Translations under genes and position numbers: made by a program
Assembly (NCBI GenBank): GCA_964016885.1
Contig: OZ024740.1
Span: forward strand, 141,918,001-141,982,000
DNA: 64,000 nucleotides
From: Eledone cirrhosa
Taxonomy: Eukaryota
Direction: 5' to 3'
Part shown: positions 20,800-60,209 of the stretch, one piece after another
How positions within the stretch are numbered: position 1 is the first letter of the stretch
Layout: every line of letters starts with the position of its first letter
The notes under the pieces: generated by a model
What the model saw: only the letters and a program-made list of their open reading frames with translations
What the model was told of the DNA's origin: nothing
Database searches by the model: none

Positions 20800-23597
20800 C
20801 TAGACCCGAACTCGGATCTGCCAGGCCAGAGACCTCTGTAAGTTATCCATAGGCCCTGGACGGAAAGTTCTCCCGAACAGACAGGTCAGTTCGTCCTCCG
20901 CTTGGTATAGGGCTGTGAGCACATGAAGGCCTCGAGGTGCCAGGCACCCATTTTCGGTCTTCGCTTGACCCAGGACTGCAGCTCTGTTAGTGAGACGAGT
21001 TGTGGAAGAGCTTGTATCACAAACGGCAGTCACACCGGTTCACCGGTCAGGAATACCTGGAGATGCCGTAGCCTCAGCGCGTGTTAGCGCATCATCAACC
21101 ACGGCATTCCCAGCCCTCCGTTAGAAGGGTGTTGACAGCAGATGGATCTCCTCACCAATGGAGCCAGTTTCTTCCAGAGGAACTTGTAGAGTAGGCGTTC
21201 CATTTTGGTAAGGTATTCGCGGGGGAAAGGCACGACTGTCAAGCGGTAGTAGATGACGGACGCTATGTAAGTGTTCGCCACCTCCGCTCAACCTTTCAAG
21301 GAGAGTTTGCACTCAGACCACTTCTGGGTGAGTGCAAACACCTTCGCCGTGACCTCGTTCCAGTTCTTGTCCACCTGGACGTCTGGACCGTACCAGACAC
21401 CGAGCAATTTCACCGGTCCTTCGGTCCAGCGTCCAACGACACTGTCGGAAGGCATGGGTTTGCCTCTCCAAGTGCCGAGTTGCAAACCGACAGACTTGTT
21501 TGGGTTTAGTCTTGCTCCTGTCAACGTTTCGTATTCCTGTAATAGGTTGCCGATTACCCTGATTTCCGAGGTTTTCGACACCATTACGGTTATGTCGTCG
21601 GCATAGGCCAAGACTGCTTTCCGCAGTCCTGGTTCGATCGGGATGCCCTGCAACAGCTCCAACTTCCGCAGTAACGGCTCGAGAGTCAGTACATACAGAA
21701 TAGAGGAGAGAGGGCAACCCTGACGGATGGAACGCATGATTTGGAATGCCTCTGATAGGTAGTCATTCACCTTGACTGCCGGGCATATGCTGGTGTGCAT
21801 GGCAGCTATCCAGCCTCTGAAGACTGGACCGTATTGATGGTCAACCCTATCAAATGCCTTAGACTGATCTAAATTGATCAGAGCCCCACCGAAACCAGGT
21901 TTACACCCTACCCACTCTATGATGTATCGCATGCGGTGGAGGTTGTCGTGTATAGATCTGGTCGGGATTGAGCTTCCCCTACTAGGTTCTCGACGATTGC
22001 TAACACCTTGGTGCTAACACCTTGGCCAAAATCTTTAACTCTGTGTTGAGCTGATTTATGGGCCTGAAATTGCTTATCTCATCCCCCTTGTTCTCATCTT
22101 TCCTGATCAGCGTTACTACGCCTCTGCCTACAGAACTGGGAATCCTCCCGTTCTGTTGCCAGTTGCAGTAGACCGCTTCGAGGACGCCAGAGAACAAGTC
22201 TGGCATGCCTATATAAAACTCATAGGGTAGACCATCTAAACCGGGTGATTTGCGTTTCCCGCAGCGGCCTAGGGCATCTTCTATTTTGCCCGCTGTGATC
22301 GGCCTTTCGCAGCTCTCTGCATCCGTGATCGAGAGTCCCGGTACGCCGTCGAGGTAGGAGCCTCCGTTGACGTACGGCTTTGCCCGAACAGTTGTGCAAA
22401 ATGCTGCTGGAAGGCCGTCCACATCTATTTGGATTCAAGTATAATGCTTCCATCTTTGTCTTGCAAAGACCGACTTGTGGATTTGTTGTCACTTTTCGCC
22501 CCTGCCACTCGGGCCCAGCTAACAGCTTTGTCTCCCTCGATCTTAGAGCACGTGTTCTACTTCTGACAATACAACCTTCGTGTTTCACGTTGAAGAACTG
22601 GTCTAGTGCCGTTCTCGCCGCTAGCACGTCAGCTGTACTGCCATTCCTAAGTGCCTCTTCTACTTTAGCTATCAGTTCCTTTTCAGTTTTTTTTTCTAAA
22701 GCTACTTCCTTGCTAAATGCTATCGATTCTATTCTAATTGCTCTCTTGAGAGAGCTCCACCACCTGTTGTTGGCGATGGCCCCCGTCAACTGGCTCTTAA
22801 CTAAGGTGCTAATCCGTTTACTGTAGGCCTTACGCACCGGGAGTGTCATGTTTAGCTTCCAGTATCCGGGTCCCTGTCTATGTGTTCTATCAAGGTTGTC
22901 TATGCAGGTGACTTATTTATGGTCTGAATAGGCAACCATTTGCATTTGAGGACAGCTTAATGTTTCCTTATCATTCTGTCTAATTAGAAATCTATCTAAA
23001 TACGAGCTAGAAGACCCAGTGTAGTTGCTCCACGTCCACAGTGGTGCACTTGGGAAGTCTAGTCGATATCTATCACCCAGTTGGAATTGGCTGATGAGAT
23101 TTTTGAGACTATTACACCCCCTCTATTATCACAAGCTCCTAAATAGTCCCAACGTGCGTCTAAGATGTCATTCCAGTCTCCCGCTAATACTAAGGAGCGA
23201 GACATTCCCAAGAATGGCTCCAGATGCTTGAAGAACTCTGGTCGCGATGTCCCAGTCGGGGCATATACGGCCACCAGTCTGAAAGCTACACCTTCACTAC
23301 CATTCACGTCCAGGACCACCAGGTTTCTCTCCGGGTCCAAGTGAATCGTCTGTATTTTGAGATCCAGGTTTTTTCGAAACAGAACAGCAACTCCCCTCCA
23401 CCTCCTGGCTGACAGAGAGATGCGTAGATCTCAAAATCATCGAACATGGGGGTTAGCTGCTGCTTGTTGTGAATTCTGGACTCGGTGATGGCTATCACAT
23501 CTATACAATGTGACCTGAGAACATTTAAAAACTGGCCCTGTTTCCAGGGCATACCCATGCCACGTACATTCAAACATCCAACTTGTATAGTGGCCAT
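20800..23597 (-). pseudogene. Element C ORF2 (APE endonuclease + RT), several frameshifts and deletions
   Basis: GCLNVRG, GDWND, KSPGLDG, DQSKAFDRV, RQGCPLS and YADD in separate frames. Confidence 0.93.
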
Positions 23598-23637
23598 GTT
23601 GGTGAAGAAGAGTTAGGGAGAGAAAAGGCATGAACAC

Positions 23638-25493
23638 TTACCTTTTAGTTTCCAGGAGGTCGGGTTGTTCGATCTCCATGTCCAGATTGGGGGTGTTTGG
23701 GGAGGGAGGGAATCCTTTTAGCAGGACTAGCAGGACACAGTCAAGGTTTTTTTGGCAAGGGGACCCCACATCATGTGGGAAGTTCCCTTTTAATGTTTCG
23801 TGTTGTAGGGTTGTTACCCTGATTAGTTTAAGGTTTGGGGGTAGGTCGTTGGTGGGTAAGGTTTTCCCTTCCGTTTGGATTGTGGGGTCCTTTCGGACAG
23901 TTTCTACCAGTTCTGTGTTTCTTGTTTTTATGTATGTGTAGTGTGTTTTGTTTTTTATGTGTACTGTTTCTGTTTGTAGTTTTCTTTTTGTGGTTGAGGT
24001 TTGTGATTGTGGTGGCGTGGCTGTTTGTTTTGTTGATGAAATGTCTGGTTGTGTTGATGGTGATTGTGTTGTTGGTGTGTTTGTCGTTTGTGGCGGTGTG
24101 TTTATGGTGGGGTTGGGTGTGTGCGTGTTTTCTGTAGATTTTTTGCTTTTGTGGTTTTTTTTCTCTCTTTTTTTTTGTTTTTTGGATTTATCGGGTTCCA
24201 CTTCATCCTCACTTGGAGATGTAGAGGTTCCCGTGTCTGAGACTTCTGAATCAGGCGTAGATGGGAGGGGTATGTTGTGTGGTGGGGTGTTTGTGCAGGC
24301 GTTTGTGGAAGTATTTGACAGAGAGCGAGGAGGCAAGGGAGGGTTTTTCAGTGGGATTTTGTGTGTTGTTGTCTCTGGTCTGTGGTGGTGTGGGAGTGGA
24401 TGTTGCAGGTTTTTGTGTTGTGTTTGGTTTGGGGTGTTGATGTTGGGGTTTTGGTGTTGGTAGTAGCACCTTGTTTGTCCTTGGTTTGTTTAAGAGAGTA
24501 CTGAGGTCTTTTCCCCTCCACTAAAATGGAGATAACATCTTCGTCCAGGATGATATAGTCTGGGATTTTTTCTACTCTCTCTGGCTTCATTTGTACCAGA
24601 ACCTCCATGCAGGTTTCAAACCAATTATTCTGGTCTGTCCTGTCTACAGATAGGAGGGTGTCCTCACCCTTCTTCAGGATGCAGCGTAGGATCCACCATA
24701 TTTTGACCTCTGCTGGGATTCTGGTTATTTTTATTTTGTAGGTTCTTCTTCCCATGTATGTGAGGAAGAAGATGTGTTGACCTGTTTTTATTGGCTGCAC
24801 TGAGTGTTTTTGAGCCAGAGTTTCGCTCTTAAAGAGCACCGACACGCTTCCATACTGTTTGGCTCTTTGAAGGTATGTCACGTCTGGCATGATGTCTTTT
24901 AATGCAGCTGCAATAGTGCTTGTTGGAAGTGTTAAGGGTTGTTTTGTAGTAATGTCAACTGTTCTGTAGATCAGATTCTCTTTTGTGTTATTTCTCTTAT
25001 TTGTGGGGGTATGTGTATGTGTGTGGTGTCTCCCTCAAACGTCACGTAGTTGGAAGCTTCTTCTAAATATTGAGAATTTTGTGAAATCCTGTTGCTTAGC
25101 AACGGTTGCTGCAAATGAAATCTTGTTATTGTTATTGTTGTTGTTGGTGGTGATGATGGTCTCATTCGTTGTGTTGTCGCTGATTCCTTTTGTTGTATTG
25201 TTGTTGTTGTTCTCATTTATTGTGTTGTTGTTGATGGTGGTGGTGGTGTTAGTGTTTGCTACACATTCTTCCTTCTGTGTGTGGGTACATGTGACGTTTG
25301 TGACGTCAAGCGTGTTCAGTTGCTTACAAGCAGCTGAAGAAGCAACTGAAGCTTGTTCCTCTTCTAAATATTGAGGCGATAATGTTGGCATTCCTTTGTT
25401 CTTGTATGCTACTATCTGCTGGTCAAGTAGACATGGCTTTCCCTTCCCATCTTCTTGTATTGACACGGAAGAAAGAGCCTTCGCTTTGCCCAT
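23638..25493 (-). pseudogene. Element C ORF1 (gag-like), frameshifted, zinc knuckle missing
   Basis: Shares YGS.S, YMGRRT, VQMKPER and VEG.RP with ORF1 of A and B; ends DMEIEQPDLLETKR-stop. Confidence 0.85.
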
Positions 25494-25709
25494 TTAAAAA
25501 AAAATTGAAGTGTTTTGCAAAAAGTTTTCGAAAATATGTTGGATGTTTTTGCCGTGAGGGGCACGATATTTTGGGAGACTGACCAGATCAAAATTTGACC
25601 TGTCAGTCCTTCTATAAATTGGTGTAAAAATAAAAGTTCACAATGACGAATTTCTAAAGAAATTTAAACAAAACTTACCGAGCAAATTTAACACATGTGT
25701 CCATCCCAG

Positions 25710-25711
<2 letters not shown>

Positions 25712-25746
<35 letters not shown>
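25712..25746. repeat. (GATA)n at the B/C junction
   Basis: Seen directly. Confidence 0.97.
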
Positions 25747-25960
25747 TTCTTTATTTACCATAAAGGCATAAAAAGAAGGGACAAATACAAAGGGGGAGTT
25801 TACATATAATCGAGTAAAAAGGGTGTAACATGAAAATAATCGAAAATAACCTCAAAAGGGAGGGGACGTGATGGGGGTTGCACACCCCCCCGAAAAAGTG
25901 TGCAATCCTTTGCCCGGGGAGCACATGGAGAAGGTGCTCCCCTCTCCTTTACTTCATTAC

Positions 25961-28900
25961 CTACAGGATGGTATACAGAGAAGGCCCATTTACACGAGCC
26001 ATTCTCGCCACTATCACCCACCTTTCATAAAACTGCCTGTGGCCAAGCACCTCTCTCTCCATTCTTATCCTTCTTCCGAAGTGATATCGGTAGAAGTAGA
26101 CCAGACTATGGCCAGAGAGGAAGTTGCCTGACCTCAGACCTTTCAATCGTGTCCACCAAACAACCTCTTTCAACATGGCTATTACGCACAGAAAAACCGC
26201 CTTTGCTTCCTTTGTGAAGAGGGGAGGCGGTTTGATTGTCATCACGGACTCGGCGGTCAATTTAATCGGCGCCACCCGCGACAGCAGTCGTTCGGCGTAG
26301 CCCCACAGATCAGCCACGCCCGGACATTGCACCAATGCGTGCGCAACGGTTTCTTCGTGACGCACGCATCTAGGGCAAATCTTTTTTGAGGGATCCCTGC
26401 CCGGGCGCCCGTGTCTGTAGAGCCTCTCTCGAACGGGTAGAGCCCCCCGGTAGCACTGCCAGGCCAGTGACTTCTGGAAGTTGTCCATTGGTCCTGGGCC
26501 GAAAGTCCTACCGAACAGGCTGGCCAGTTCGTCTTCTTCCATGTCCAGCGACGCTCCAAGGGTGTCATCGCCCCTGCTAGCCACCAGCCCTCTATAGAAT
26601 GATGAGGTGGATTCTCCACCGATGGCCTGGCCCGCTTGCCAGAGAGCCCTGAGCGCCTGAGCACACTCAGTGTGCCAGTCTCCCAGTTTTCCGGATCTTT
26701 GCTTGACCCAGGACTGTAGCTCGGTGAGCGAGACGAGTCTGGGAAAGGCTCGTTTCACGAACGGAGCCCACACCGGTTGACCAGTGAGGAATACCTGTAG
26801 GTGCCGTAGCCTTAATGCGTGCCTACGCATCATCAACCACGGCATCCCCAGCCCTCCTTTCGAAGGTTGTTGGCAGCAGATGGATCTTCTCACCATAGGA
26901 GGACGCTTCTGCCAAAGAAATTGGAAGAGCATGCGTTCCATGGTGGTGAGTGTTTCCTTAGGGCAAGGCACGACAGTCAGGCGGTAGTAAGTGACGGACG
27001 CTATGTAAATGTTCGCCACCTCCGCCCGGCCTTTTAGGGACAGCTTACACTTGGCCCATTTCTGGGTTAGTGCAAACACCTTGTTCGTAACCTCGTTCCA
27101 GTTCTTTTCCACCTGGAGGTCCGGTCCAAACCAGACCCCAAGCAACTTTACCGGGCCCTCCGTCCAGTGTCCGACGACACCGTCAGGAGGCATCGGTCTG
27201 CCTCTCCACGTTCCGAGTTGCAGCCCGATGGATTTTTCCCGGTTCAGTTTCGCTCCTGACAACCTTTCGTACTCCTCCAGTAAGGTACCGATCGCCTCGA
27301 TCTCCGAGTCGGTTGATACCATTACTGTTACGTCATCGGCGTAGGCCGACACCGCTTTGCTCAATCCTGGTTCCAGGGGGATACCCTGCAACAACTCCAA
27401 CTTCCTCAGTAAAGGCTCGAGAGTCAATACGTACAGAAGGGAGGAGAGAGGGCACCCCTGTCGAATGGATCGTGTGATTTCGAACGGCTTCGAAAGGTAG
27501 CCGTTCACCTTGATCCTAGAACAGATGTGGTTGCCATGTAGGGCAGTGATCCAGCCTCTGAAAACAGGACCGAACCCAGCCGCCGCTAGCACCGCATCCA
27601 GGTAACCATGGTCGACCCTATCGAAGGCCTTAGACTGATCCAAGTTGATCAGGGCCCCACCGAAGCCGGGTTTGTTGCCAACCCTCTCTATGATGTATCG
27701 CATGAGGTGGAGGTTATCGTGAATGGACCTGGATGGGATAGCACATGTCTGCGCATCTCCCACCAGGCCACCCACGACAAGCGCCAACCTCTTTGCTAAC
27801 ACCTTGGCCAAAATCTTTAACTCTGTGTTTAGCAGGGTTATGGGCCGAAAATGATTTATACTATCCCCCTTGTTCTCGTCCTTCCTCACCAGCGTGACTA
27901 CGCCCTTGGCTACAGAACAAGGAATTCTCCCGTTCTGCTGCCAATTGCAGTAGACCGCTTCGAGGAGTTCGGAGAAGAAGACCGGCATTGCTAAATAAAG
28001 TTCGTAAGGTATACCATCGAGACCTGGAGATTTGCGTCTGCTGCATTGGCTCAGCGCATCTCCGATCTCATCAGCCGAGATTGGTCCCTCGCAGGACTCT
28101 ACCTCTTCGTTCGAGAGACGCGGCAGGCCGTCGAGGTATGGACCGAAATCCACGCCCCCGCCCGGACCCTCGCCTCCCCCGAACAATCGGGCAAAGTGCC
28201 TTTGAAAGGCCTCGCACATCTGCTTAGGCTCCCGGATCACCCGTCCATCTTCGTCTTGCAACGACCGGATGGTGGATCGATTTCCACTCTTAGCTTCTGT
28301 CACGCGGGCCCATCCAACGGCTTTGGCCCCCTCATTACCTAGAGCACGTATTTTACTTCGAATGACGCAGCCTTCGTGCTTTGCATCGAAAAACTGGTTC
28401 AAGGCCGTCCTCGATGCCAGCACTCTGGCCACATCTTCGCTCTTGATTGCCTCTTCTAATTTACCTGTTAATTCTTTCTCGTTTCTATTCCTATCGGCAG
28501 CTAACATCTTGCTATAACTTATTGATTCTGTTCTAATCTCTCTTTTGAGAGATGCCCACCATCGGTTGTTGACGATTGCACCCGTCAACCTCTCCTTAAC
28601 TAATCTGCTAATCCGGTTTCTGTAAGTCTCTTTTGCCGGTAAAGACAAATTAAGTTTCCAGTAACCGGGACCCTGTCTATGTGTTTTCTCGAGATTGACC
28701 ACGCAGGTCACTAATTTGTGATCCGTGTAGCCAACCGTGCGCATTTCTGGACAGCTTAATATGTCCCTATCCTTACTTCTAACTAAGAATCTATCTAAGT
28801 ACGATCTAGATTGACCACTGTGGTTTCTCCAAGTCCAGGTAGGCACAGTTGGAAAATCTAGTCGATATCTATCGACCAAGTTAAAACGGTCGAGTAACCC

Positions 28901-29399
28901 CTTGAGGCTGTTACACCCCCCCTCTATTAGGACATGCTCCTGCATAGTCCCAACGTGCATCCAGGATGTCATTCCAATCCCCCGCTAGAAGCAGGGAACG
29001 CGACGTTCCCAGAAAAGTCTCCAAACGCTGGAAGAAGTCGGGCCGTTCAGCTCCGAAAGGGGAGTAGACGGCGACCAGTCTCAAGGCCGCACTTTCACTA
29101 CTGCCAACGTCTAGCACCAACAAACGACCCTCCGGGTCCGAGTGCACAACCTGTACGGCAAGACCCAGGTGTTTTTGCAGCAGTACGACAACCCCACCCC
29201 CACCTCCAGGTTGATAGAGAGATGCATGCACCTCAAAGTCATCGAAGGTGGGGGCCAGCTGCCGCACGACGCTGATTCGAGTCTCACAGATAACCATTAC
29301 ATTTATACTACATGACCTGAGGTCATTTAGAAGCTTTGCTTGCTTCCAAGTTGAGCCCAGGCCACGTGCATTCAAACATCCTACTCTTAACACATCCAT
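25961..29399 (-). CDS. Element B ORF2 (APE + RT + CCHC zinc finger); single frameshift at a G7 run (28916-28922)
   Basis: Track ORFs 28911-29399 and 25961-28972 join into an A-like ORF2 if G7 is read as G6. Confidence 0.9.
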
Positions 29400-29432
29400 G
29401 TGGGCGGCAGAGCCAAAGGAGAGTGTAGAGAC

Positions 29433-31333
29433 CTACCTTTCCGCTTCCCGGGGTTCGGGTTGCACGACTTCCATGGGTCGGGGGTGTTGGGTGAAGGGGT
29501 GTCTTGTGGTGGTGTGGGGTCGTCAGTGTGTGGTGGGGTTGGGGTGTTTGGAGTTGTGTTGGGGAGGGGAAGGGGAGGGGGAAAGCTTTTTAGTAGGACG
29601 CGGTTTATGGGTTTGACAGAGGGTGGTCCTACGTCCTCCTTAAAATCCTTTTTTAGTTTTTGGTAGAGGTTCATTGGGATCTTTATTAGTTTTAAATGTG
29701 GGTAGTTTTCTGAAGAAACAAAGTTTACACCTTCGGTTTGTACCGAAGGATTATTGTATATGAGCTCATTTAATTTATTATTGTTTCTGTTGATGTAAGT
29801 ATAGTGTAATGTCTTTTTTTCCGATGGTGTGAGTGTTTCGAAGAGGGGAGGGGCAGGTTTGGTTTTGTTTGTTGCTGGAGGGGTGTTTTATGTTTTGTTG
29901 GATTGTGTTGAGATTTGGGTGGGGGTTGTTTGTCCTCGTGTGTTTTGCACATGTTTTCTTTTTTTCCTTTTAATCTGTCTGAAGGACTCCGTTTCTTCCT
30001 CCGAATTCGTTGGGTTATCTTCAGTGTTGGAGGGAAGAGGTATGTTTGCTGGTAATGTTTCCGTGTTGGTTTTCTTTGTGGGGGAGATGGATGTCACTAT
30101 GTTAGACTGTGTTGTGTGTTGTGTCTGCGGTGGTTGTGTTGTTTTATTGAGTGAGAGGTTGGGTGGGCCTGTATTTTGTTTTGGGGTAATGTGTTGTGAC
30201 TGTTTGTGTTGTGGTGGTGTTGTGGTTTTACTGAGGGACGGGTTGGGTGGGACTGAGTTTTGTTGTTTGTTTATCTGTTGTGGTGGTGGTGGTGGAGCTG
30301 GTGTTGGTAGCAGGGTTTTCTTTTTGTTGAGTTGGGGACAAGCGGCCTTCAGGTGCCCTCTGCCTGCACAGATGTGGCAGGACGGCCTTCTCCCCTCCAC
30401 GCTAATGTTTATATACCCGTGGTCCTCTAATAGGATTCTGTCGGGTATTTGGGCGATGCGTTCAGGCTTCATTTGTACTACCAGCTCTATACCTGTTCCA
30501 CTGAACGCATTGCCTGTGGTTTTCCCAATGGAAATCACGTTGTCATTCACTGGATCGATGAAGCCAGCTATGAGCCAGCAGTAGTCCACATCTGGCATCA
30601 TTGGATCCAGCCATATGCGTTGAGTTCTTTTCCCCATATAAGATGGATAAAAGGTGAAATTTTTCGAACGAATCGGTGACAAAGTACATTTTTTTGCCGC
30701 CGATTCGTTCTTCATGATAATTGCTAGGCTTCCATACAGTCTGTCTTTTCTTATGAAAGTGGTTTCATTAAGTACTTCTGTGAGTACTGTTTTGATATCT
30801 GCTTGAGAAGGCTGTTCAGGTTTTTTTGTACTGTTGTTGATGGTCCGAAACTTGACCGTTCGGCTTTCAATGTTTTTCGTGAATTCTTGAGGCATTTTTA
30901 CCGATAAAATACCATTCTCTCCTTCACTTATGTATTGTTTGGCGTCCGTGATCCTTCGTACCACATCTGAAATGTTTTCCGCTATATAAGTCAAAGATTT
31001 CTTTGTTTTCTGTGCAAATGAAATCTTGTCGTCTGCTTTGTTTTCTGATATGGTGTTATTTTCAAATGTTATTTTTGTGTTTGTTGTGTCTTTGTTTGTG
31101 TTATTAGTATTGTCATGCAATTTTTCAAATTTTTTTTTTTCGTTGTTGGAATCCAAGTCCAGATTTGTGTTTTCGTCATTTTTTTTTTTCTCCGCAGATT
31201 CGTCTGTTTTTATTTTAATTTTTCCTTCCTTCTCTATGACGTTAGTTGGGAAGGAAGGGGGGACTAAAGCGTGCGAGCTTACAACTCTTACCGCTGTCCC
31301 CCCACCACTATTTTCGTTCGCTGCGTTTAACAT
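29433..31333 (-). CDS. Element B ORF1 (gag-like with CX2CX4HX4C knuckle); stop and frameshifts in 3' third
   Basis: 481-aa ORF with CHICAGRGHLKAAC. Downstream frames give FKEDVGPP..PINRVLLK and PMEVVQPEPREAER-stop, matching A. Confidence 0.82.
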
Positions 31334-31565
31334 TTCTGTTAGACGATTGAAATTTTTTACACAAAATTTTTTAAAACAGGTTTTTCACCTCTAGGAGGGG
31401 TAAAGATGAGCTGACCCACCGCCTGACAGTTCAGACGGAGGGTCAAGCTACACAATTGTATCAAAATTAAGTTTGAACTCACAAAATTTCCTCAATGAAT
31501 TTGAACAAAACTTCTGTGCGAAGTGAATGACATCCACACTGTAGAACAGACGACAGCTAGATTTT

Positions 31566-31586
31566 GATAGATAGATAGATAGATAT
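31566..31586. repeat. (GATA)5 at the A/B junction
   Basis: Seen directly. Confidence 0.95.
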
Positions 31587-31849
31587 ATTTCTTTTATTTG
31601 CCACTAGGGCATCAAAAGTGGGACAAGTACAAAGGGGGGAGTTTACACAAAAAGGCGTCCTCAATAAGGAGGAGGCAATAACAAAATATAAAAATAAAAT
31701 AAGATATAACAAAAAATAAAATTTTTAACAAAATCCTCAATAGAGAGGAGGCGCCTTGGGGGGTCGCACACACCCCCGAAAAAAGTGTGCAACCCTTCTC
31801 CTCAGGAGCACAGAGAAGGGGTGCTCCCTTGGTCTTTCATCTTCCTCAC

Positions 31850-34800
31850 CTATAGTCTGATGTAGAGTGAAGGCCCATTCACACGGGCCATTCTCGCCAC
31901 TTTCACCCATCTTTCATAGAAACGGCTGGGGTGCAGCACCTCTCTCTCCATCCTGATCCTTCTTCCGAAATGATATCGGAAGAAACGGACCAGTTGTTGG
32001 CCAGAGAGAAAGGTGCCCGACCTCAGTCCTTTCAGACGCGTCCACCATACAACCTCTTTCGCCATGGCTATTACGCACAGAAACACCGCCTCTGCTTCAT
32101 CTTTGAAGGGGGGAGGCGGCTTGATCATTACAATAGACTCGGTGGTCAACCGGATCGGTCCCACCCTTGACAGCAGTTGTTCGACATAGCCCCACAGATC
32201 GGCTACGCCCGAGCAGTGTACTAATGCGTGTGCAACGGTTTCCTCGTCGCACACGCATCTGGGACAGATCTTTTTGGCGGGGTCCCTACCCGGGCGCCCG
32301 TGTCTGTAGAGCCTTTCTCGAACGGGTAAAGCCCCTCGGTAGCACTGCCAGGCCAGGGACTTCTGGAAGTTGTCCATAGGTCCCGGGCTGAATGTCCTAC
32401 CGAAAAGGCTGGCCAGTTCGTCCTCCTCCATGTCTAGGGCTTCTCCGAGGGCGTCGTCGCACCTGCTGCGTACCAGCCCTCTATAGAATGTTGCGGTGGA
32501 GTCTCCACTGATAACCGGATCCGCCTGCCAGAGGGCGGTGAGCGCCTGGGCACACTCAGTGTGCCAGGCGCCCAGTTTTCTCGGTCTTTGCTTGACCCAG
32601 GATTGCAGCTCGGTGAGTGAGACGAGTCTGGGAAAGGTTCGTCTCACAAACGAGGCCCACACCGGTTGTCCGGTGAGGAATACGTAGAGGTGCCGTAGCC
32701 TTAATGCGTGTTTACGCATCATTAGCCACGGCATCCCCAGCCCTCCTTTCGAAGGGTGTTGACAGCAGATGGATCTCCTCACCATAGGAGCCCGCCTCTT
32801 CCAAAGGAATTGGAAGAGCGCGCGCTCCATCTTGGTGAGGGTTTCCCTTGGGCAGGGCACTACGGTCAGGCGGTAGTAGATGACGGACGCTATGTAGGTG
32901 TTCGCCACCTCCGCCCGACCTTTCAGGGATAGTTTGCAACTGGCCCACTTCTGGGTCAGTGCAAACACTCTGTTCGTAACCTCCGCCCAGTTTTTCTCCA
33001 CCTGGAGGTCCGGTCCGAACCAGACCCCGAGCAACTTCACCGGGCCCTCCGTCCAGCGTCCGACGACGCTATCGGAGGGCATCGGTCTGCCCCTCCACGT
33101 GCCGAGTTGCAAACCGATCGACTTGTCCCGGTTCAGCTTAGCCCCTGTGAACTTTTCGTACTCCTCCAGTAAGGTGCCGACCGCCTCGATTTCGGAGGCC
33201 GTCGACACCATTACTGTCACGTCATCGGCGTAGGCCGACACCGCTTTCCGCAATCCCGGTTCCAAAGGGATGCCCTGCAACAACTCCAACTTCCGCAGTA
33301 GTGGCTCGAGAGTCAATACATACAGAAGGGAGGAGAGAGGGCACCCTTGTCGGATGGACCGCGCGATTTTGAACGGCTCCGAGAGGTAGCCGTTCACCTT
33401 GACCCTAGAGCAGATGCGGCTGCTGTGCATAGCAGTGATCCAGCCCCTGAAAACGGGTCCGAAGCCTGCCGCCGCTAGCACCGCATCCAGGTAACCATGG
33501 TCGACCCTATCGAACGCCTTAGATTGATCCAAGTTGATCAGAGCCCCACCAAAGCCGGGTTCGTTCCCAACCCTCTCTATGATGTATCGCATGAGGTGGA
33601 GGTTGTCATGGATGGACCTGGACGGGATAGCGCATGTCTGCGCATCTCCCACCAGGTTGCCCACGACAAGCGCCAACCTCTTTGCTAGCACCTTGGCCAA
33701 AATCTGTAACTCTGTATTTAGCAGTGTTATGGGCCTGAAGTTACTTATTTCGTCCCCCTTGTTCTCGTCCTTCCTCACTAGCGTGACTACGCCCTTGGTC
33801 ACAGTACAGGGAATTCTCCCGTTCTGTTGCCAGTTGCAGTAGACCGCCTCGAGGAGATCGGGGAACAAGTCCGGCATAGCTAGATATAATTCGTAAGGAA
33901 GACCATCGAGACCCGGGGATTTGCGTTTGCCGCATTGGCTCAGCACGTCCTCTATCTCAGCGGCCGAAATCGGCTCCTCGCAGGACTTCGCCTCCCTGTC
34001 CGAGAGGCGCGGCAGGCCGTCGAGGTATGGACCGAAGTCCACGTTCCCAACCGGCTCCCCGCCCCTCCCGAACAGTCGGGCAAAGTGCCTTTGAAAGGCC
34101 TCACACATCTGCTTAGGCTCAAGAATCGCCCGTCCATCCAGGTCTCGCAAAGACCGGATGGTGGATTTAGTTCCACTGTTGGCCTCTGTCACGCGGGCCC
34201 AGCTAACAGCTTTGGTCCCCTCGTTCCCTAGAGCACGTATTTTACTTCGGACAACGCAGCCTTCGTGCTTCGCGTCGAAAAACTGGCTCAAAGCCGTTCT
34301 CGACGCTAGCACTCTGGCCACGTCGCCGCTTCTAATTGCCTCTTCTACTCTATCTATTAGCTCCCTTTCCTTCCTATTCCTATCCGCAGCTAGAACCTTA
34401 CTAAATTCTATCGAGACTACTCTAATCTCTCTCTTTAGAGATACCCACCACCTGCTGTTGACGATCGCTCCAGTCAACCGTTCCTTAACTAACGTACTAA
34501 TCCGATTCCTGTAGGCTCTACTTGCCGGCAAGGACAAGTTGAGCTTCCAGTAACCGGGGCCCTGTCTATGAGTTCTGTCAAGGTTGACCATGCAGGTCAC
34601 TAATTTGTGGTCTGAATAGCCAACAATGCGCATTTTTGGACAACTTAAAAAGTCCTTATCCTTAATTCTAACTAAGAACCTATCTAGGTACGACCTAGAT
34701 GATCCGCTACGATTTGCCCAAGTCCAGGTTGGCGCAGTCGGAAAATCTAGTCGATATCTATCGGCCAGGTCAAATCGACCGATTAACCCTTTGAGGCTAT

Positions 34801-35287
34801 TACACCCCTCTCTATCGGGGCAGGCCCCTACGTAGTCCCAGCGTGCATCTAGGATACCATTCCAGTCCCCCACTAATAGCAAGGAGCGGGACGTCCCTAG
34901 AAAAGTCTCCAGACGATGGAAGAAGTCCGGCCGCATTGACCCGAAAGGGCCGTAGGCGGCTACCAACCTAAACGCTCCGCCTTTACCACTGCCAAGGTCC
35001 AGAACCACTAGTCGACCCTCCGGGTCCAAATGTACCATCTGTGTTGCGAGACCCAGATGTTTTTGCAGCAGAACGACAACTCCACCCCCACCTCCAGGCT
35101 GACAGAGAGATGCGTGCATCTCAAAGTCATCAAAGGTGGGGGCCAGCTGTCGCACGTTGCTGATCCGGGCCTCGCAAATAACCATCACATCTATACGTTG
35201 TGACCTGAGGTCATTTAGAAGCATTGCTTGCTTCCAAGTTGAGCCCAGGCCACGCGCATTTAAACAGCCTACTCTTAGCATAGCCAT
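31850..35287 (-). CDS. Element A ORF2, intact, 1145 aa from the ATG at 35287: APE endonuclease, reverse transcriptase, C-terminal zinc finger
   Basis: APE motifs GCLNARGL, ICE, GDWN, SYLDR, SDHK. RT motifs SPGLDG, RPITLLN, DQSKAFDRV, RQGCPLS, YADD. Zinc finger CPRC..EETVAHALVHC. Confidence 0.97.
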   Translation of the reverse strand: MAMLRVGCLNARGLGSTWKQAMLLNDLRSQRIDVMVICEARISNVRQLAPTFDDFEMHASLCQPGGGGGVVVLLQKHLGLATQMVHLDPEGRLVVLDLGSGKGGAFRLVAAYGPFGSMRPDFFHRLETFLGTSRSLLLVGDWNGILDARWDYVGACPDREGCNSLKGLIGRFDLADRYRLDFPTAPTWTWANRSGSSRSYLDRFLVRIKDKDFLSCPKMRIVGYSDHKLVTCMVNLDRTHRQGPGYWKLNLSLPASRAYRNRISTLVKERLTGAIVNSRWWVSLKREIRVVSIEFSKVLAADRNRKERELIDRVEEAIRSGDVARVLASRTALSQFFDAKHEGCVVRSKIRALGNEGTKAVSWARVTEANSGTKSTIRSLRDLDGRAILEPKQMCEAFQRHFARLFGRGGEPVGNVDFGPYLDGLPRLSDREAKSCEEPISAAEIEDVLSQCGKRKSPGLDGLPYELYLAMPDLFPDLLEAVYCNWQQNGRIPCTVTKGVVTLVRKDENKGDEISNFRPITLLNTELQILAKVLAKRLALVVGNLVGDAQTCAIPSRSIHDNLHLMRYIIERVGNEPGFGGALINLDQSKAFDRVDHGYLDAVLAAAGFGPVFRGWITAMHSSRICSRVKVNGYLSEPFKIARSIRQGCPLSSLLYVLTLEPLLRKLELLQGIPLEPGLRKAVSAYADDVTVMVSTASEIEAVGTLLEEYEKFTGAKLNRDKSIGLQLGTWRGRPMPSDSVVGRWTEGPVKLLGVWFGPDLQVEKNWAEVTNRVFALTQKWASCKLSLKGRAEVANTYIASVIYYRLTVVPCPRETLTKMERALFQFLWKRRAPMVRRSICCQHPSKGGLGMPWLMMRKHALRLRHLYVFLTGQPVWASFVRRTFPRLVSLTELQSWVKQRPRKLGAWHTECAQALTALWQADPVISGDSTATFYRGLVRSRCDDALGEALDMEEDELASLFGRTFSPGPMDNFQKSLAWQCYRGALPVRERLYRHGRPGRDPAKKICPRCVCDEETVAHALVHCSGVADLWGYVEQLLSRVGPIRLTTESIVMIKPPPPFKDEAEAVFLCVIAMAKEVVWWTRLKGLRSGTFLSGQQLVRFFRYHFGRRIRMEREVLHPSRFYERWVKVARMARVNGPSLYIRL

Positions 35288-35311
35288 GTTGGTGGTGAAG
35301 AGAAAAGGCAC

Positions 35312-37095
35312 TTACCTCTCTGCGTCCCGGGTATCGGGCTGCACAATTTCCATTAGGGTGGGGGATGGGTTGTTGGGTGGGGTGGTGGTTTGTGGAAGTG
35401 TGGGGGCATCAGTGTGTTGTGTGGTTGGGGAGCTTGGAGTTGTGAGGGTGTTTGGGGAGGGGGTGGGATAGTTTTTTAGGAGGACTCGGTTAATGGGCCC
35501 GACGCAGGGGGGACCCACGTCCTCTTTAAAATTGTTTTTTAAAGTTTTATAGGTGTCCTGTGGGGCCTTAATCATTTTGAGGTGGGGGAAATCCCCTGCC
35601 TGGGTGAAGTTAGGCCCTTGTGTTTTTATTAGATTGTTGTTGTACACAATGTTTAACAGTTTTTTGTTTCTTGTATTTATGTATGTGTATGCATGTTTTT
35701 GTTTTTGTGTGGTGTTTTTTGTTTGCTGTTGAGAGCTCTTTTGTGTTGGTGTCAGTGTTATGTTTTGGGGAGGGGTTTTTTTCATTTGTGTGTCTGAGGT
35801 GTGTTTTCTTTTTTTTCTTTTGATTGTGTGGAAGTGCTCCTCCTCGTCTGACGACGAACTAGGGTCATCTTCCGCGTTGGAGGGGAGGGGTATATTTTCG
35901 GGTTGTGTTTGCGGTACGGGTGTTTTGGAAATTGTTTTTGTTTTTTGAGTGGAGGGGATGGGTTGGACATTGTTTTGTTTTGGTTTGAGCTGTGGTGGTT
36001 GTTTTTGTAGTGGTTGTTGTGGTGATTGTGTTGGTTGTGCAGTTGTTGGTGGTGTGGGCAGGATTGGGGTTTTCTTATTAAGTTGGGGACAGACAGCCCT
36101 CAGGTGACCTCTGGTTCCGCAGAGGTAACACGAGGGCCGTCTACCCTCAACGGTAATGTTGATGAAGGTTAGATCATCCAGTATGACGCGTTCAGGGATC
36201 TGGGCGATCCTTTCGGGCCTCATTTGAACTACAAGTTCGAGGCTCGTTCCACTGAACGCGTCACCCGATGCCTTTCCCATGGACACCAGCATGTCATCCT
36301 CCAGGTCCAGAAAACCTGTCAAAACCCACCATATGTCCATAATCGGCAGGATGGTGTGGATTTTTATTTTTTGTGTTCTTCTACCCATGTACGTAGGGTA
36401 GAAGGTGTATGCGGTGGATGTGATTGGTTTGATGGACAGTTTCACTGCTGTGTCCCTGTCCTTCATGAGAATGGATAGACTCCCGTAGAGTCTATCCTTC
36501 TGAATGAAGGTGATGTCCTTCATGACGTCTTTTAAAACCAGCTCTATCTCGCTCTGTGATGGTTGAGCTGGTTTTTTACTTTTGTTCGAGATTGTCCTAA
36601 ACATGACCGTGTTTAGGAGTCTCTGGCTTTTTAGTTCCGGGGGGGAATGGATTGTGAATGAACCATTTTCCCCGTACACTATATATTTTTTTTCGCATCC
36701 GCCAGTAGCTCCTTCGCTTTTGTTATATCTACTGGCAGATAGTCGAGGGTTTTCCTTGTCGTCTCGGCGAAGGAGAAATTTTGTTTGTTTGTGTTGTTGT
36801 TGTCGTTGGTGGTGTTGTTGTTATCATTGTTGTTGTTGTCACCGTTATTGGTCTTGTTGTTGTTATTGTTATTGTTATTGGTGTTGTTTTCTACCGTCGC
36901 ATTGTTGTTGTTGTTGCTGTTGGTTCTTTGGGTTGTTGCCATGGTAACGTCAAGTTGTCGGTTAACAGGTGGAGAGAATTCTTCCTCTGGCTGACCTATC
37001 TTCTTGACCTCTGCTACTGTGACAGTGGCAGGGGGAAGCTGTAAGTTCATCTTCCCCTTTCCTCCTTCGAATTTTGGTGAAGAAGCTTCGGCCAT
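35312..37095 (-). CDS. Element A ORF1 (Asn-rich N-terminus, conserved core, CCHC knuckle); one frameshift at an A8 run (36686-36693)
   Basis: ORFs 36679-37095 and 35312-36679 join as ADAKKYIVYGENG (B: TDAKQYISEGENG). Knuckle CYLCGTRGHLRAVC. Confidence 0.88.
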
Positions 37096-37304
37096 TTAAA
37101 AAAATATTGACTTTTCAACAAGAAAAAACTTTTTTTTTAACTATTTCGCCTAAAGGCGTAGAATATTTTGAGAGACTGACCAGATCAAAGTTTGACCTGG
37201 CAGTCCCTCTACAAAATGGTACAAAAATTAAAGTTATCAGACAAGAATTTCTATAGAAATTTAAACAGAACTTACTCAGCAAGTTATACGCGTGTGTCCA
37301 TCCC

Positions 37305-56138: not shown

Positions 56139-59100
56139 CAGTCAACGCGATCAGTCGCATATTTTGGCGTGGGAGACTATTTATTAAATTTAAGATGAAT
56201 ACTATCTCCGACAGTAATGCCACAACTACAGTCATGTTGAATAAGTGGTTATTCTTCTAACTATATCTTCTGAAGACACTTTTTATTCGAATTCGTAGAG
56301 ATATCCGACTAAATACATAATTAATTTTACAAGGATTTGCTACAAACGGCATGGCTGAACACAACATCAACAAAATTAAGGAAATACCGAAGACAAATAA
56401 CAAGGAAGGTAAACAAACTTTATTCAGTTGTAGCTACAGAAGAAACTGAAATTATAAATCGCATTTCTCTTGGAGTTGCGAACTTAATGATGATTTATTT
56501 AATTGTTATAAAATGGCAAAAAACAATCTCTCCATTGGCTATATGAACAGAATGAAGCTACACTGGGACGAAATACATCCACAGCTAAATTATTTCACAG
56601 CGAAACAATTACGCCAACAACCGACGTTTGTTGAACGTAAAAATAAGATAAATATTATTAATTGTAAGTCCCTCACAACAAACATGTTATCAACAACACG
56701 TGCTACAGGTCGCCATGCTACTAGACTTCCTAGCAGCCAGGTCGAACAGCGACTTGAAACAACTATGCCTGTAAGAAACTTGACACCACCTGTACCATCT
56801 AAGTCTACCTCGAATGTTGGGGAAAACACTATCGATAATAATAATAATCGAAGAAATAATAATAATAATCGAAGAAATTTGACACCACGTGTACCATCCG
56901 AGTCTATCTCGACTATTGTGGAAAATACTATCGATAATGATAATCAAAAGTATAAACAATTGAAATTTTCCCTCAACGAAATCTTCCAGAGATAAATTAA
57001 CTCATGTATAAATATCTCTCTTGCTGAACGTATTAAAACGACAATGTTTAATAAAAACCAAATAATGAAATATTACGTGTTATTGACGAATTAGGGGATG
57101 AATATTTACGACGGATAAAAGCCCCAACATTTTCGCAAATCAACGCCTGTTTATATGCCTTAGAAACGACAGTGAAGCATTATCTTGGTGATAGCAGAGA
57201 TATTAACAAGAACAGAACACCACCAAAAATACCATCATATATAACTAAAATAGAAAAAAAGATTGCTGACCTACGAAAAAACATAGGATATGTGACAATG
57301 CTCCTTACTTGCAAACAAACGTAAAAAAACCTCACTCCTCACCAACAAAGAGTGAAAAATAAAATAGAGACGATGTTTGGTAACAGTAGAACCAGAACTC
57401 TCCAATATAAGCTGATCACCTTCAAACAAGAATTGAGAGCTGTTAGCGAAAAACGCCGATACCCGAAGAAGGTAGATGAGAGAAAAGTGATTAATAAAAC
57501 ATCAGTCTATAGAGATATGAAGGGCAAAATAATAAGTGTCACTGAGGCCCCATCCAAGAAAGACATAGATTCCTTTTGGAGCAAAATATGGGGTGAAAAG
57601 AAGAATTTCAACCAAGATGCAGTGTGGCTAAACGAAATCCAAAAGAACTATTGCCCCTACACTACAACAAAAACATACGAAATAAGTGAGGGTACCCTTG
57701 AGACTGTGATAGGAAAACCCCAAGATAAGAAAACACCAGGAAGAGACATGATTGTCGGCTACTGGTACAAAAAAACTGATATTCTATCAGAGGTATCTTA
57801 CCGACCTCTACCAACAAGTTCTTAAGGGACATACACTTATACCAGAATAGTTGACATTAGCACAAACATTACTGGTCCCCAGAATAAAGACACCCATCTG
57901 GCAAAAACCTACCGACCCATTGCATGCCAGAACCTGATGTATAAAATCTATACCGTCTTCCTGAACCTAAGATCACTGTGAAAATAATAACATCATCACA
58001 GATGAACAAGCAGCTGGAAAGAAAGGGGTTTGGGGATGTGCTGAACAACTCCTAATCAACAAAACTTCGATGTCGGAGGTGCGACAATTTAGGAGGAATA
58101 TGGCTACAGTCTGGCCGGACTACAGGAAAGCTTTCGATTCTGTTCCCCACTCTTGGATTTTAGAGGCCCTCCAACTTGCTAAAGTCCCAGACATTATTGT
58201 CAGAACCATAGAGAGGCTGTCTTCTTCTTGGGCTACTATCCTAAGGTTAAAGACAGAGAGGGAGGACTCTATTTTCACTGATAAAATTAAATATTGCAGG
58301 GTTATATTTCAGGGGAACAGTCTCTCTGTGATATTATTCATCTTCTCATTAAACCCCCTCTCCTTTCTGCTCAAGAAATGTGAGAGATACATCATTGGCT
58401 CACAGGAGGACAGAAATACGAACATAACCCATAATTTCTTTGTGGACGATTTGAAACTCTATGCCAAGAACATGGATGGGATGAAGAAAAATCTTGACCT
58501 GGTTACAACGTTCTCAAAGGATATAGGAATGGAGTTTGGCCAAGATAAATGGTCATACATGACGGTAAAGCGGGGAAAAACAACAACCCAATCTAGCAAC
58601 ATTGTCATCAATGGCCTAACTGTTTCACCGATATCTGATGAGGACTGCTACAGATACCTGGGGATAGATGAGAACATATCCTATGATGGTGTCTGTAATA
58701 AAGAACGCTACACCCGATTAAGAAAGATCTGGTCATCGGAACTCTCTGCGCAAAACAAAACAGTGGCTCACAATGTGTTTGCTGTGCCTGTCCTAACACC
58801 AACGTTTGGAATACTCAATTGGACGATAGACGAAATCCGAGCAGTTGATGTTGGAACTCGAAAAATACTAAACAACACCGGAAACTTCCACATCAACAGT
58901 GATATAGACTGCCTTTACTTGAAATGTAAGCAGGAAGGCAGAGGCCTAACATCAGTCCAGACAACATTTGAATGTCGCATCTCTCCGACAACATCTACGA
59001 ACCTCGAAGCGTAGGAGCCCGTTTCTCGAGCAAGTCTATCTGCATGAAACAGATAAGCTCATGAGAGTTGGGAAAGAACTCCTCGAGAGATATTCCCTGT

Positions 59101-60209
59101 GTGACAATCAAAACCGTACACCCAGGGATGTCGCTCATCAGTATCGTAGTGAATCCATGGATGAAAAACTGCATGCTTATCAGCAAAAAATCATGCATGG
59201 ATATGTTGCCAGGAAGCTCCAGAGTGAGAGTAATATAGATAAGGAAAGTAGTCTATCTTGGACCAACAACCGCTATATTGGCTCCCACTTTGAAGGATAC
59301 GCTTTTGCAATCCAGGAACAGGAGATTAGCACGAAATATCTGATTCACAAAAGAGATAGGGATGCAGGCAAAACACCTAGATGTGATAACAAGTGCATAC
59401 TCTGCAGAACTAACATCGAGGATATCACCCATGTCATCAGCAGCTGTCCAAAGATGTCATTGCGGTACTATCTACCTATGAGGCATGATGTAGTGACCAA
59501 AACACTGTACATTGCAGTTCATAAAAAAGATAGCCCCGATAATAAACACATTAAAAGCTACAGCAATGTGGAAGACAACCATGTACATAATATGAAAGAG
59601 TACTGGTGGAATATTCCAGTAAAAACCCCAATAAAATGCAGGCATAACAGACCAGATATTATGATATGGGACAGGGAGAAGAAAGCATGCACAGTAGTGG
59701 AAATTAGCTGCCCAGCAGATGCCAATATAATATCAAAGATTAGTGAAAAGGAGAATATTTATGCAGAACTGATGAGAAATCTGCACATACTCCACCCTGA
59801 TTACACCTTCAGATGTATGCCTGTGATTATTGGGGCACTGGGATATGTTAGTAACTGCCTCAATACAAATCTTGAGAAGCTAGGCTTCACAGGAACAGAA
59901 AGAACACAACTAGTTAGGAAATTACAAGTACAATCCATTAATGAAACAGTAAAAATATGTAAAACATTCCAAAAATTTTGCATCTAATAACTGCATATAC
60001 ACATGTACAGATGCAAAGCATATACACATGCACACATACAACTCAAAACATCCCCATCCACACTTACAATAACATCCATATCTACACATGCAGACATACA
60101 TACATATCTACCTAGTTGATGTATAAATTCCAATCAGAGAGTCTTGTGTCTATGTTAGAAACTGACTCTCGCTCTATTGGTAAAACTTTGTGAAATTATA
60201 AAACCAGAA
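56139..60209 (+). mobile_element. R4/Dong-like non-LTR retrotransposon with restriction-like endonuclease; near full length, frameshifted
   Basis: RT motifs YRPIAC, DYRKAFDSVPH, IFQGNSLS, FVDDLKL, YLG. Then CILC..EDITHVISSC, RHD, NRPD..VEISCP..EKENIY. (CATA)n on both flanks. Confidence 0.9.

Follow-up and report, generated by a model that had tools for sequence, protein, structure and literature searches.

In a window of 64,000 nucleotides (nt) from the genome of the octopod Eledone cirrhosa (assembly GCA_964016885.1, contig OZ024740.1, positions 141,918,001 to 141,982,000; coordinates below count from the first letter of this window), the minus strand carries three head-to-tail copies, A, B and C, of a long interspersed nuclear element (LINE) with two open reading frames (ORFs), with (TATC)n tracts between them. 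In all three copies the end of ORF1 reads as a 5' splice donor. An earlier note on this DNA had pointed out these motifs, and they are indeed all present on the minus strand, in C as well, which has lost its 3' end. Here I show that the donor is a real feature, conserved in all 19 subfamilies examined, for which no description was found in the literature searched, and that its occurrence is far beyond chance and, by the comparisons below, apparently under selection. Taken over all readings, the motif is very probably a functional site for U1, the small nuclear ribonucleoprotein (snRNP) that recognises splice donors. As to its use, I tentatively favour a U1-binding site that is mostly left unspliced and that would probably control the production of ORF1-only versus full-length RNA.

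The motif at the end of ORF1

Junctions between the two ORFs were collected by ORF2 sequence and by DNA similarity to A, B and C, and 100 longer stretches were fetched and sorted by eye into 19 subfamilies, with one to three copies each. The donor consensus, MAG/GTRAGT (the slash marks the start of the intron), was applied in an unconditioned scan with a threshold of at least 8 of 9 matches. Every subfamily representative (19 of 19) has a donor that precedes the ORF2 ATG by 25-53 nt, and sites of this quality are few, only 1-4 per representative in about 6 kb. The count over all junction copies collected is 152 of 161, and seven control windows gave 0-1 of 161; many of the copies, however, are near-identical kin, and those of A, B and C were fetched by donor-containing queries. 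In distant L1/Tx1 elements from metagenome contigs, a donor near the ORF1 stop is present in 0 of 33 (in this control set the ORF2 start was absent in 42 of 80, and 5 of 38 loci gave no ORF1 call).

Could an arginine codon followed by a stop simply happen to read as a donor, and be shared by descent? All subfamilies do go back to a single ancestor, and A is still identical to D or G at about half of the four-fold degenerate sites; over 18 subfamilies, 18 of 129 such sites are invariant (this neutral yardstick omits L223 and L228, which have internal deletions, and subfamily N). However, the motif does not follow the Arg-stop reading. In A, ORF1 ends Glu-Arg-TAA with GTAAGT at 35315-35310, and in 14 subfamilies the donor likewise lies in phase 2 and reads Arg-stop, but in G, H, O and C2b it lies in phase 1 and reads Gly-Lys-stop or Gly-Glu-stop, and in G2 it lies in phase 0 and reads Val-Ser. 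The phase is supported by an open frame of 726 codons in H (phase 1) and of 229 codons in G2 (phase 0), while the phases of C2 and C3 were assigned from tail homology; the tree, unrooted and with two poor copies included, implies at least three changes of phase. As the motif is kept in all three phases, it is no by-product of Arg-stop, and its persistence in phases 1 and 0 against a background of diverging spacers and ORF1 tails, as well as its absence from the 33 control LINEs, makes chance with shared descent a highly improbable account of the donor.

The variants GTAAGT, GTAGGT, GTGAGT and GTAATT, each preceded by G, all fall within the donor consensus; tallies per position were conditioned on the motif and are not used as a test. 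The earlier note had remarked that the +5G and +6T are kept in spite of inter-ORF spacers of 24, 33 and 40 nt in A, B and C. The spacer lengths are as it gave them, and the conservation extends to the whole motif over 19 subfamilies and three phases. From this conservation, both selection on the donor at the level of RNA and binding by U1 seem likely. Outside the species, the relative P0019 ends G-K-stop and P0021 (Argonauta) ends E-G-K-S, both of which fit a phase-1 donor; this is only a lead, as the pattern was not seen in 17 other long relatives. Separately, most subfamilies have a second donor-like site, AAG/GTGGGT, about 60 nt ahead of the ORF2 stop, within Glu-Arg-Trp-Val codons; it is lost in A and may be purely coding.

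The ORF2 stop as a candidate acceptor

In a generalised form of the earlier note's proposal, splicing would join the donor to the terminal TAG of ORF2, so that ORF2 would be one intron of 3.4-3.5 kb. The product would be an ORF1-only mRNA stopping within a few codons, and the unspliced RNA would make the ORF2 protein (ORF2p) and be copied. The acceptor half of this proposal is doubtful. ORF2 ends with TAG in 17 of 19 subfamilies and with TAA in D1 and D2, and the D lineage is abundant, has intact ORFs and has retained the donor while its ORF2 stop offers no AG. Family-wide conservation of TAG-G-stop, which the note had named as a check, was not borne out: the TAG shows 2 departures in 18, and 14 of 32 neutral two-fold sites are as well conserved; the G after it shows 3 in 18, a level reached by 55 of 129 neutral four-fold sites. 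The tract upstream of the ORF2 stop has just 8-11 pyrimidines of 14, compared with 12-14 at the spacer AGs of C2, G2, O and N, and in A an upstream CAG (31859-31857) would compete as acceptor. The tract after TAG-GT is purine-rich, so that 3 of 4 T-R-R codons are stops, and neither TAG nor the +1 G departs from the neutral range. The TAG-G-stop half thus does not clearly exceed chance, and chance with shared descent remains adequate for it.

The stop that the join would create was examined in each subfamily. It lies where the earlier note's stop-to-stop scheme would have it in A, B, I and K (phase 2), in G, O, H and C2b (phase 1) and in G2 (phase 0), which includes all five subfamilies outside phase 2, and the stop codon at the matched place varies between TGA, TAA and TAG. 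The scheme fails in C, C2a, C3, L, M, N, D1 and D2, whereas P and Q are mixed, with an early stop in one of two copies of each. In genomic C copies the end reads TAG-GTTGAG, from which the ORF1 stop is not rebuilt, and in L, the sister nearest to A (94% at four-fold sites), the join would add a tail of 60-78 codons. With an early stop defined as an in-frame stop at most 2 codons past the join, and copies for which no 3' end was found omitted (L202, L218), the score is 10 of 19, against 6.3 expected with shuffled phases (naive p = 0.004, kin not being independent). This excess favours the note's scheme, but the threshold was set after the data had been seen, kin share their states, and the purine-rich tract gives phase-2 stops three times in four.

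Some further details speak for the join. Spliced G would end E-G-R-stop, compared with E-G-K-stop unspliced, and in G2 the loss of one base ahead of the donor goes with the gain of one ahead of the downstream stop, which looks like a compensated shift. The 3' untranslated region (UTR) begins purine-rich, resembling an exonic enhancer, and synonymous conservation over the last 20 codons of ORF2 is 0.87 (mean 0.77, standard deviation 0.05), the fifth highest window. A prediction written beforehand, that ends of the form TAG-GTTGA go with a phase-1 donor, mostly failed, being right for 2 of 7 C2 copies and for 0 of 2 C3 copies (10 of 20 stretches reached the junction). I regard splicing from stop to stop as the main rival reading, though a rather unlikely one, and give no more weight to its evolutionary version, in which an octopod LINE lineage uses the whole of ORF2 as an intron and indels past the acceptor have re-tuned the terminal stop upon a change of donor phase (in G2 and in the A/B/I/K clade). 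The first 8 nt past the ORF2 stop preserve a further stop, in the phase-1 frame, in C, C2, C3, D, H, N, G and O, even though D has no AG there.

Spliced copies and contigs

Processed copies of the proposed ORF1-only RNA, which the earlier note had suggested looking for, were not found in the subfamilies covered. By exact genomic patterns, 0 of 867 A-type ORF1 ends (862 + 5) are joined to the 3' UTR, and the 5 with a base other than G after the exon end and the 2 GTT cases are point changes or insertions. Pattern searches for ORF2-less joints in A/L/M/P, C/C3, D, G/G2 and H, with B, K, I and C2 outside the search, gave point mutants or nothing, and none of the 30 of 68 D copies viewed with a non-G base after the exon end is spliced. 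This is moderate evidence, since decayed copies escape an exact pattern and the copying of an ORF1-only RNA would depend on ORF2p supplied in trans.

Contigs from sequencing runs of unknown kind (X1, X4, X5 and X6) were also inspected: no joint from the ORF1 donor to the ORF2 TAG is among the 15 of 89 joints listed, and for the contig sets X4 and X5 there is no matching joint among the 6 joints of one table or the 12 of 13 listed rows of another, with 60 loose ends outside the listing. One X4 contig runs unbroken across the acceptor of B, which counts against stop-to-stop splicing there. The depth of X4 contigs over B is 75-194 in ORF1 bins and 32-35 in 5' ORF2 bins, unlike X1, but contig depth cannot rank parts of an element and was not used. 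As a whole, the earlier interpretation is partly supported.

Other possible roles of the donor

If the ORF2 stop is not its partner, the donor could be spliced elsewhere: into a host exon, to the acceptor in the 5' UTR of the neighbouring tandem copy, or to an AG 37-60 nt downstream, which would fuse ORF1 to ORF2. Copies sit in tandem arrays, and the spacers are pyrimidine-rich; in C2, G2, O and N a strong YAG precedes the ORF2 ATG by 5-9 nt. Read by eye, the first AG past the donor shares the frame of ORF2 in A, B, D and several more subfamilies. In C, G, H, O, N and C2b, however, it does not, the in-frame AG is part of a conserved Arg codon, a length of 37-60 nt falls short of the usual minimum for an intron, and the five A copies mentioned above with a non-G base owe it to point changes or insertions. 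No alternative acceptor-like site is common to all subfamilies. Both a micro-intron fusing the ORFs and a shared alternative acceptor were considered and are unsupported, and I judge another acceptor in general to be unlikely. The YAG sites of C2, N, G2 and O (L242, L243, L223, L204, L225), with their strong pyrimidine tracts, could serve an ORF2-only spliced RNA like human SpORF2.

The motif might also be donor-like in appearance only, acting as a termination-reinitiation signal for the translation of ORF2 or as a protein-binding site on RNA or DNA. It does lie at the ORF1 stop, the ORF2 ATG that follows after 25-53 nt has a shared CAAC-like context, and a spliced product was seen nowhere in the genomic and contig searches. 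Against such a role, the variants follow the donor consensus, their position is independent of the frame of the stop, and similar motifs occur in unrelated 5' UTRs, so that I consider it quite improbable.

This brings me back to U1 bound at a donor that is usually not spliced. U1 snRNP would bind the motif, hold off premature cleavage and polyadenylation and so let transcription continue through ORF2; where U1 is not bound, short ORF1-only RNAs would be made. The role in premature termination is proposed by analogy with the plant element EVD, where donor-bound U1 represses early termination. Besides the conservation of the motif, three observations favour this reading: the donor persists in D in spite of the missing AG at the end of ORF2; hexamers AATAAA or ATTAAA occur inside ORF1 in 18 of 19 representatives (two loci being short upstream); and the 5' UTR has a donor that is never removed in spite of a good acceptor. 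This last donor belongs to candidate introns of 67 nt in A and C, with a strong donor and a T-rich TAG acceptor. Had they been spliced, their absence would be copied in cis, yet among genomic 5' ends 0 lack this intron while 531 have it. Several unrelated 5' UTRs (G, O, Q, I, L) also have donor-like motifs close to their 5' end.

Several points weigh against the same reading. Cleavage at the hexamers inside ORF1 would truncate ORF1, so that no ORF1-only 3' end is mapped. The donor is invariably upstream of the ORF1 stop, which a U1 model does not predict, and the tracking of donor phase by early stops likewise lies outside its predictions. Finally, unpaired strong donors can cause nuclear retention, which would be a cost to a LINE.

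The elements in the window

Table 1. Features of the LINE copies in the 64,000-nt window
Feature	Position	Strand	Remarks
LINE copy A (Tx1-like), full length, flanked by (TATC)n	31586..37304	-	sequence, Pfam; 3' boundary approximate
A ORF1, weak CCHC knuckle	35312..37095	-	593 amino acids (aa) in intact copies
A inter-ORF spacer, pyrimidine-rich, 24 nt	35288..35311	-	sequence; pyrimidine-rich in all subfamilies
A ORF2, 1145 aa, endonuclease, reverse transcriptase and zinc-binding tail	31850..35287	-	sequence, Pfam
A donor motif over last ORF1 codon and stop	35310..35318	-	at least 8/9 consensus matches; intron would begin at 35315
A candidate acceptor: TAG (31852-31850), G, TGA	31846..31859	-	sequence; predicted
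A 5' UTR candidate intron, GTAAGT...TAG, 67 nt	37209..37275	-	sequence
LINE copy B, sister subfamily, frameshifted here	25746..31566	-	sequence; boundaries approximate
B donor motif at ORF1 stop	29431..29439	-	sequence; donor at 29436
B ORF2 stop TAG, then G and TAA	25957..25963	-	sequence; TAG ends at 25961
LINE copy C, decayed, 3' end lost	20815..25710	-	sequence; boundaries approximate
C donor motif at ORF1 stop	23636..23644	-	sequence; donor at 23641
C 5' UTR candidate intron, 67 nt	25612..25678	-	sequence

The family is young and large, as seen from its junctions, intact copies and counts. All 40 of 40 scored genomic matches to the A junction are identical over 421 nt, 26 of 30 other A copies fetched have an intact ORF1, and loose genomic patterns find at least 6,414 ORF2 starts and at least 19,244 ORF2 ends. 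The copies in the window are less well preserved, with 2 extra bases near 36686 in ORF1 of A and indels at 29474 and 28916 in B. ORF2 of A matches Exo_endo_phos (PF03372), RVT_1 (PF00078) and, below its cut-off, zf-RVT (PF13966), while the zf-CCHC match of ORF1 (E 0.051) is under the Pfam cut-off.

With an N-terminal apurinic/apyrimidinic (AP)-like endonuclease, reverse transcriptase (RT) and C-terminal zinc motif in ORF2, a separate upstream ORF1, 5' truncation, a poly(A) signal and a simple-repeat tail, the elements have the features of the L1/Tx1 group. I call them Tx1-like, a label that comes from architecture and microsatellite flanks. Named relatives are from Argonauta hians and three Octopus species. 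No match was obtained in a metagenome scan with the relative P0004, in a viral scan or in an ORF1 word search, and a pattern for a supposed subfamily E gave 0 matches.

The 5' flanks of the copies shown are (TATC)n in A, B, C, I, L, P and Q and (ATT)n in D, G, G2, H and O, which is no fair count as the script selected such flanks. The split between the two kinds of subfamily matches the ORF2 tree and suggests a change of target. Copies insert head to tail into the microsatellite tail of older ones (window 20815-37304; L221, L234, L155). The 5' UTR types, on the other hand, disagree with the ORF2 tree, as A, L and C are of one type and B, I and Q of others (L160, L146 and L220 vs L155, L213 and L229), which suggests 5' UTR swapping. 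In the 3' UTR of A (31780-31830, minus strand) two hairpin-like inverted repeats were noticed by eye; related forms occur in other subfamilies, and they may be a recognition signal for ORF2p. One D copy (L130) has a frameshift that fuses ORF1 and ORF2 into an open frame of 1851 codons. Elsewhere in the window, the plus strand holds the 3' portion of a D-subfamily copy (1-2480, ORF2 end near 2214-2230) and a frameshifted RT-containing piece of another retroelement (57971-59987, RVT_1).

Comparison with known systems

What is known of how a LINE obtains much ORF1 protein but little ORF2p from a single RNA comes mainly from mammalian L1, with reinitiation and premature polyadenylation. A selected donor at the end of ORF1 across thousands of copies would point to spliceosome-linked control, as in plant copia elements, in a different class of element, and ORF2 as an intron from stop to stop, if true, would be a retrovirus-like subgenomic RNA strategy in a LINE. 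Thousands of strong donors over a genome of 3 Gb could also affect host transcripts.

In the literature searched, which leaves aside subscription journals, Repbase Reports and supplements, I found neither a conserved donor at a LINE ORF1 stop, nor a donor described in Tx1 elements, nor ORF2 as an intron. HAL1, or half-L1, with ORF1 and a 3' tail, has the form expected of a copied spliced RNA, but no such ORF1-only element was found in the subfamilies searched here. The Tx1-clade elements Kibi and Koshi, as described in PMC4494074, are likewise two-ORF elements with AP endonuclease and RT and with microsatellite flanks, which are (TC)n or (TTC)n there and (TATC)n or (ATT)n in the octopod host.

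Human L1 (PMC2896524, PMC5860796) is also a LINE with donor sites, and both spliced and prematurely polyadenylated L1 RNAs exist. The donors described there, however, are in the 5' UTR and give ORF2-only (SpORF2) or 5' UTR-deleted RNAs, and SpIREs make up 131 of 6,609 full-length copies, i.e. about 2% spliced (PMC5860796), whereas the donor described here is at the ORF1 stop and comes with no spliced genomic copies in the searches made. Another close system is EVD, a Ty1/Copia element of Arabidopsis (PMC5580714). EVD is a long terminal repeat element with one ORF and a short intron shown at the RNA level, in contrast to a two-ORF LINE known from DNA, in which ORF1 has its own stop. Its shGAG RNA nevertheless resembles the arrangement proposed here, with a conserved donor near the end of the structural gene and a stop arising just past the junction, and in EVD the U1 at this donor both drives splicing and represses premature termination, so that the two uses coexist (PMC5580714).

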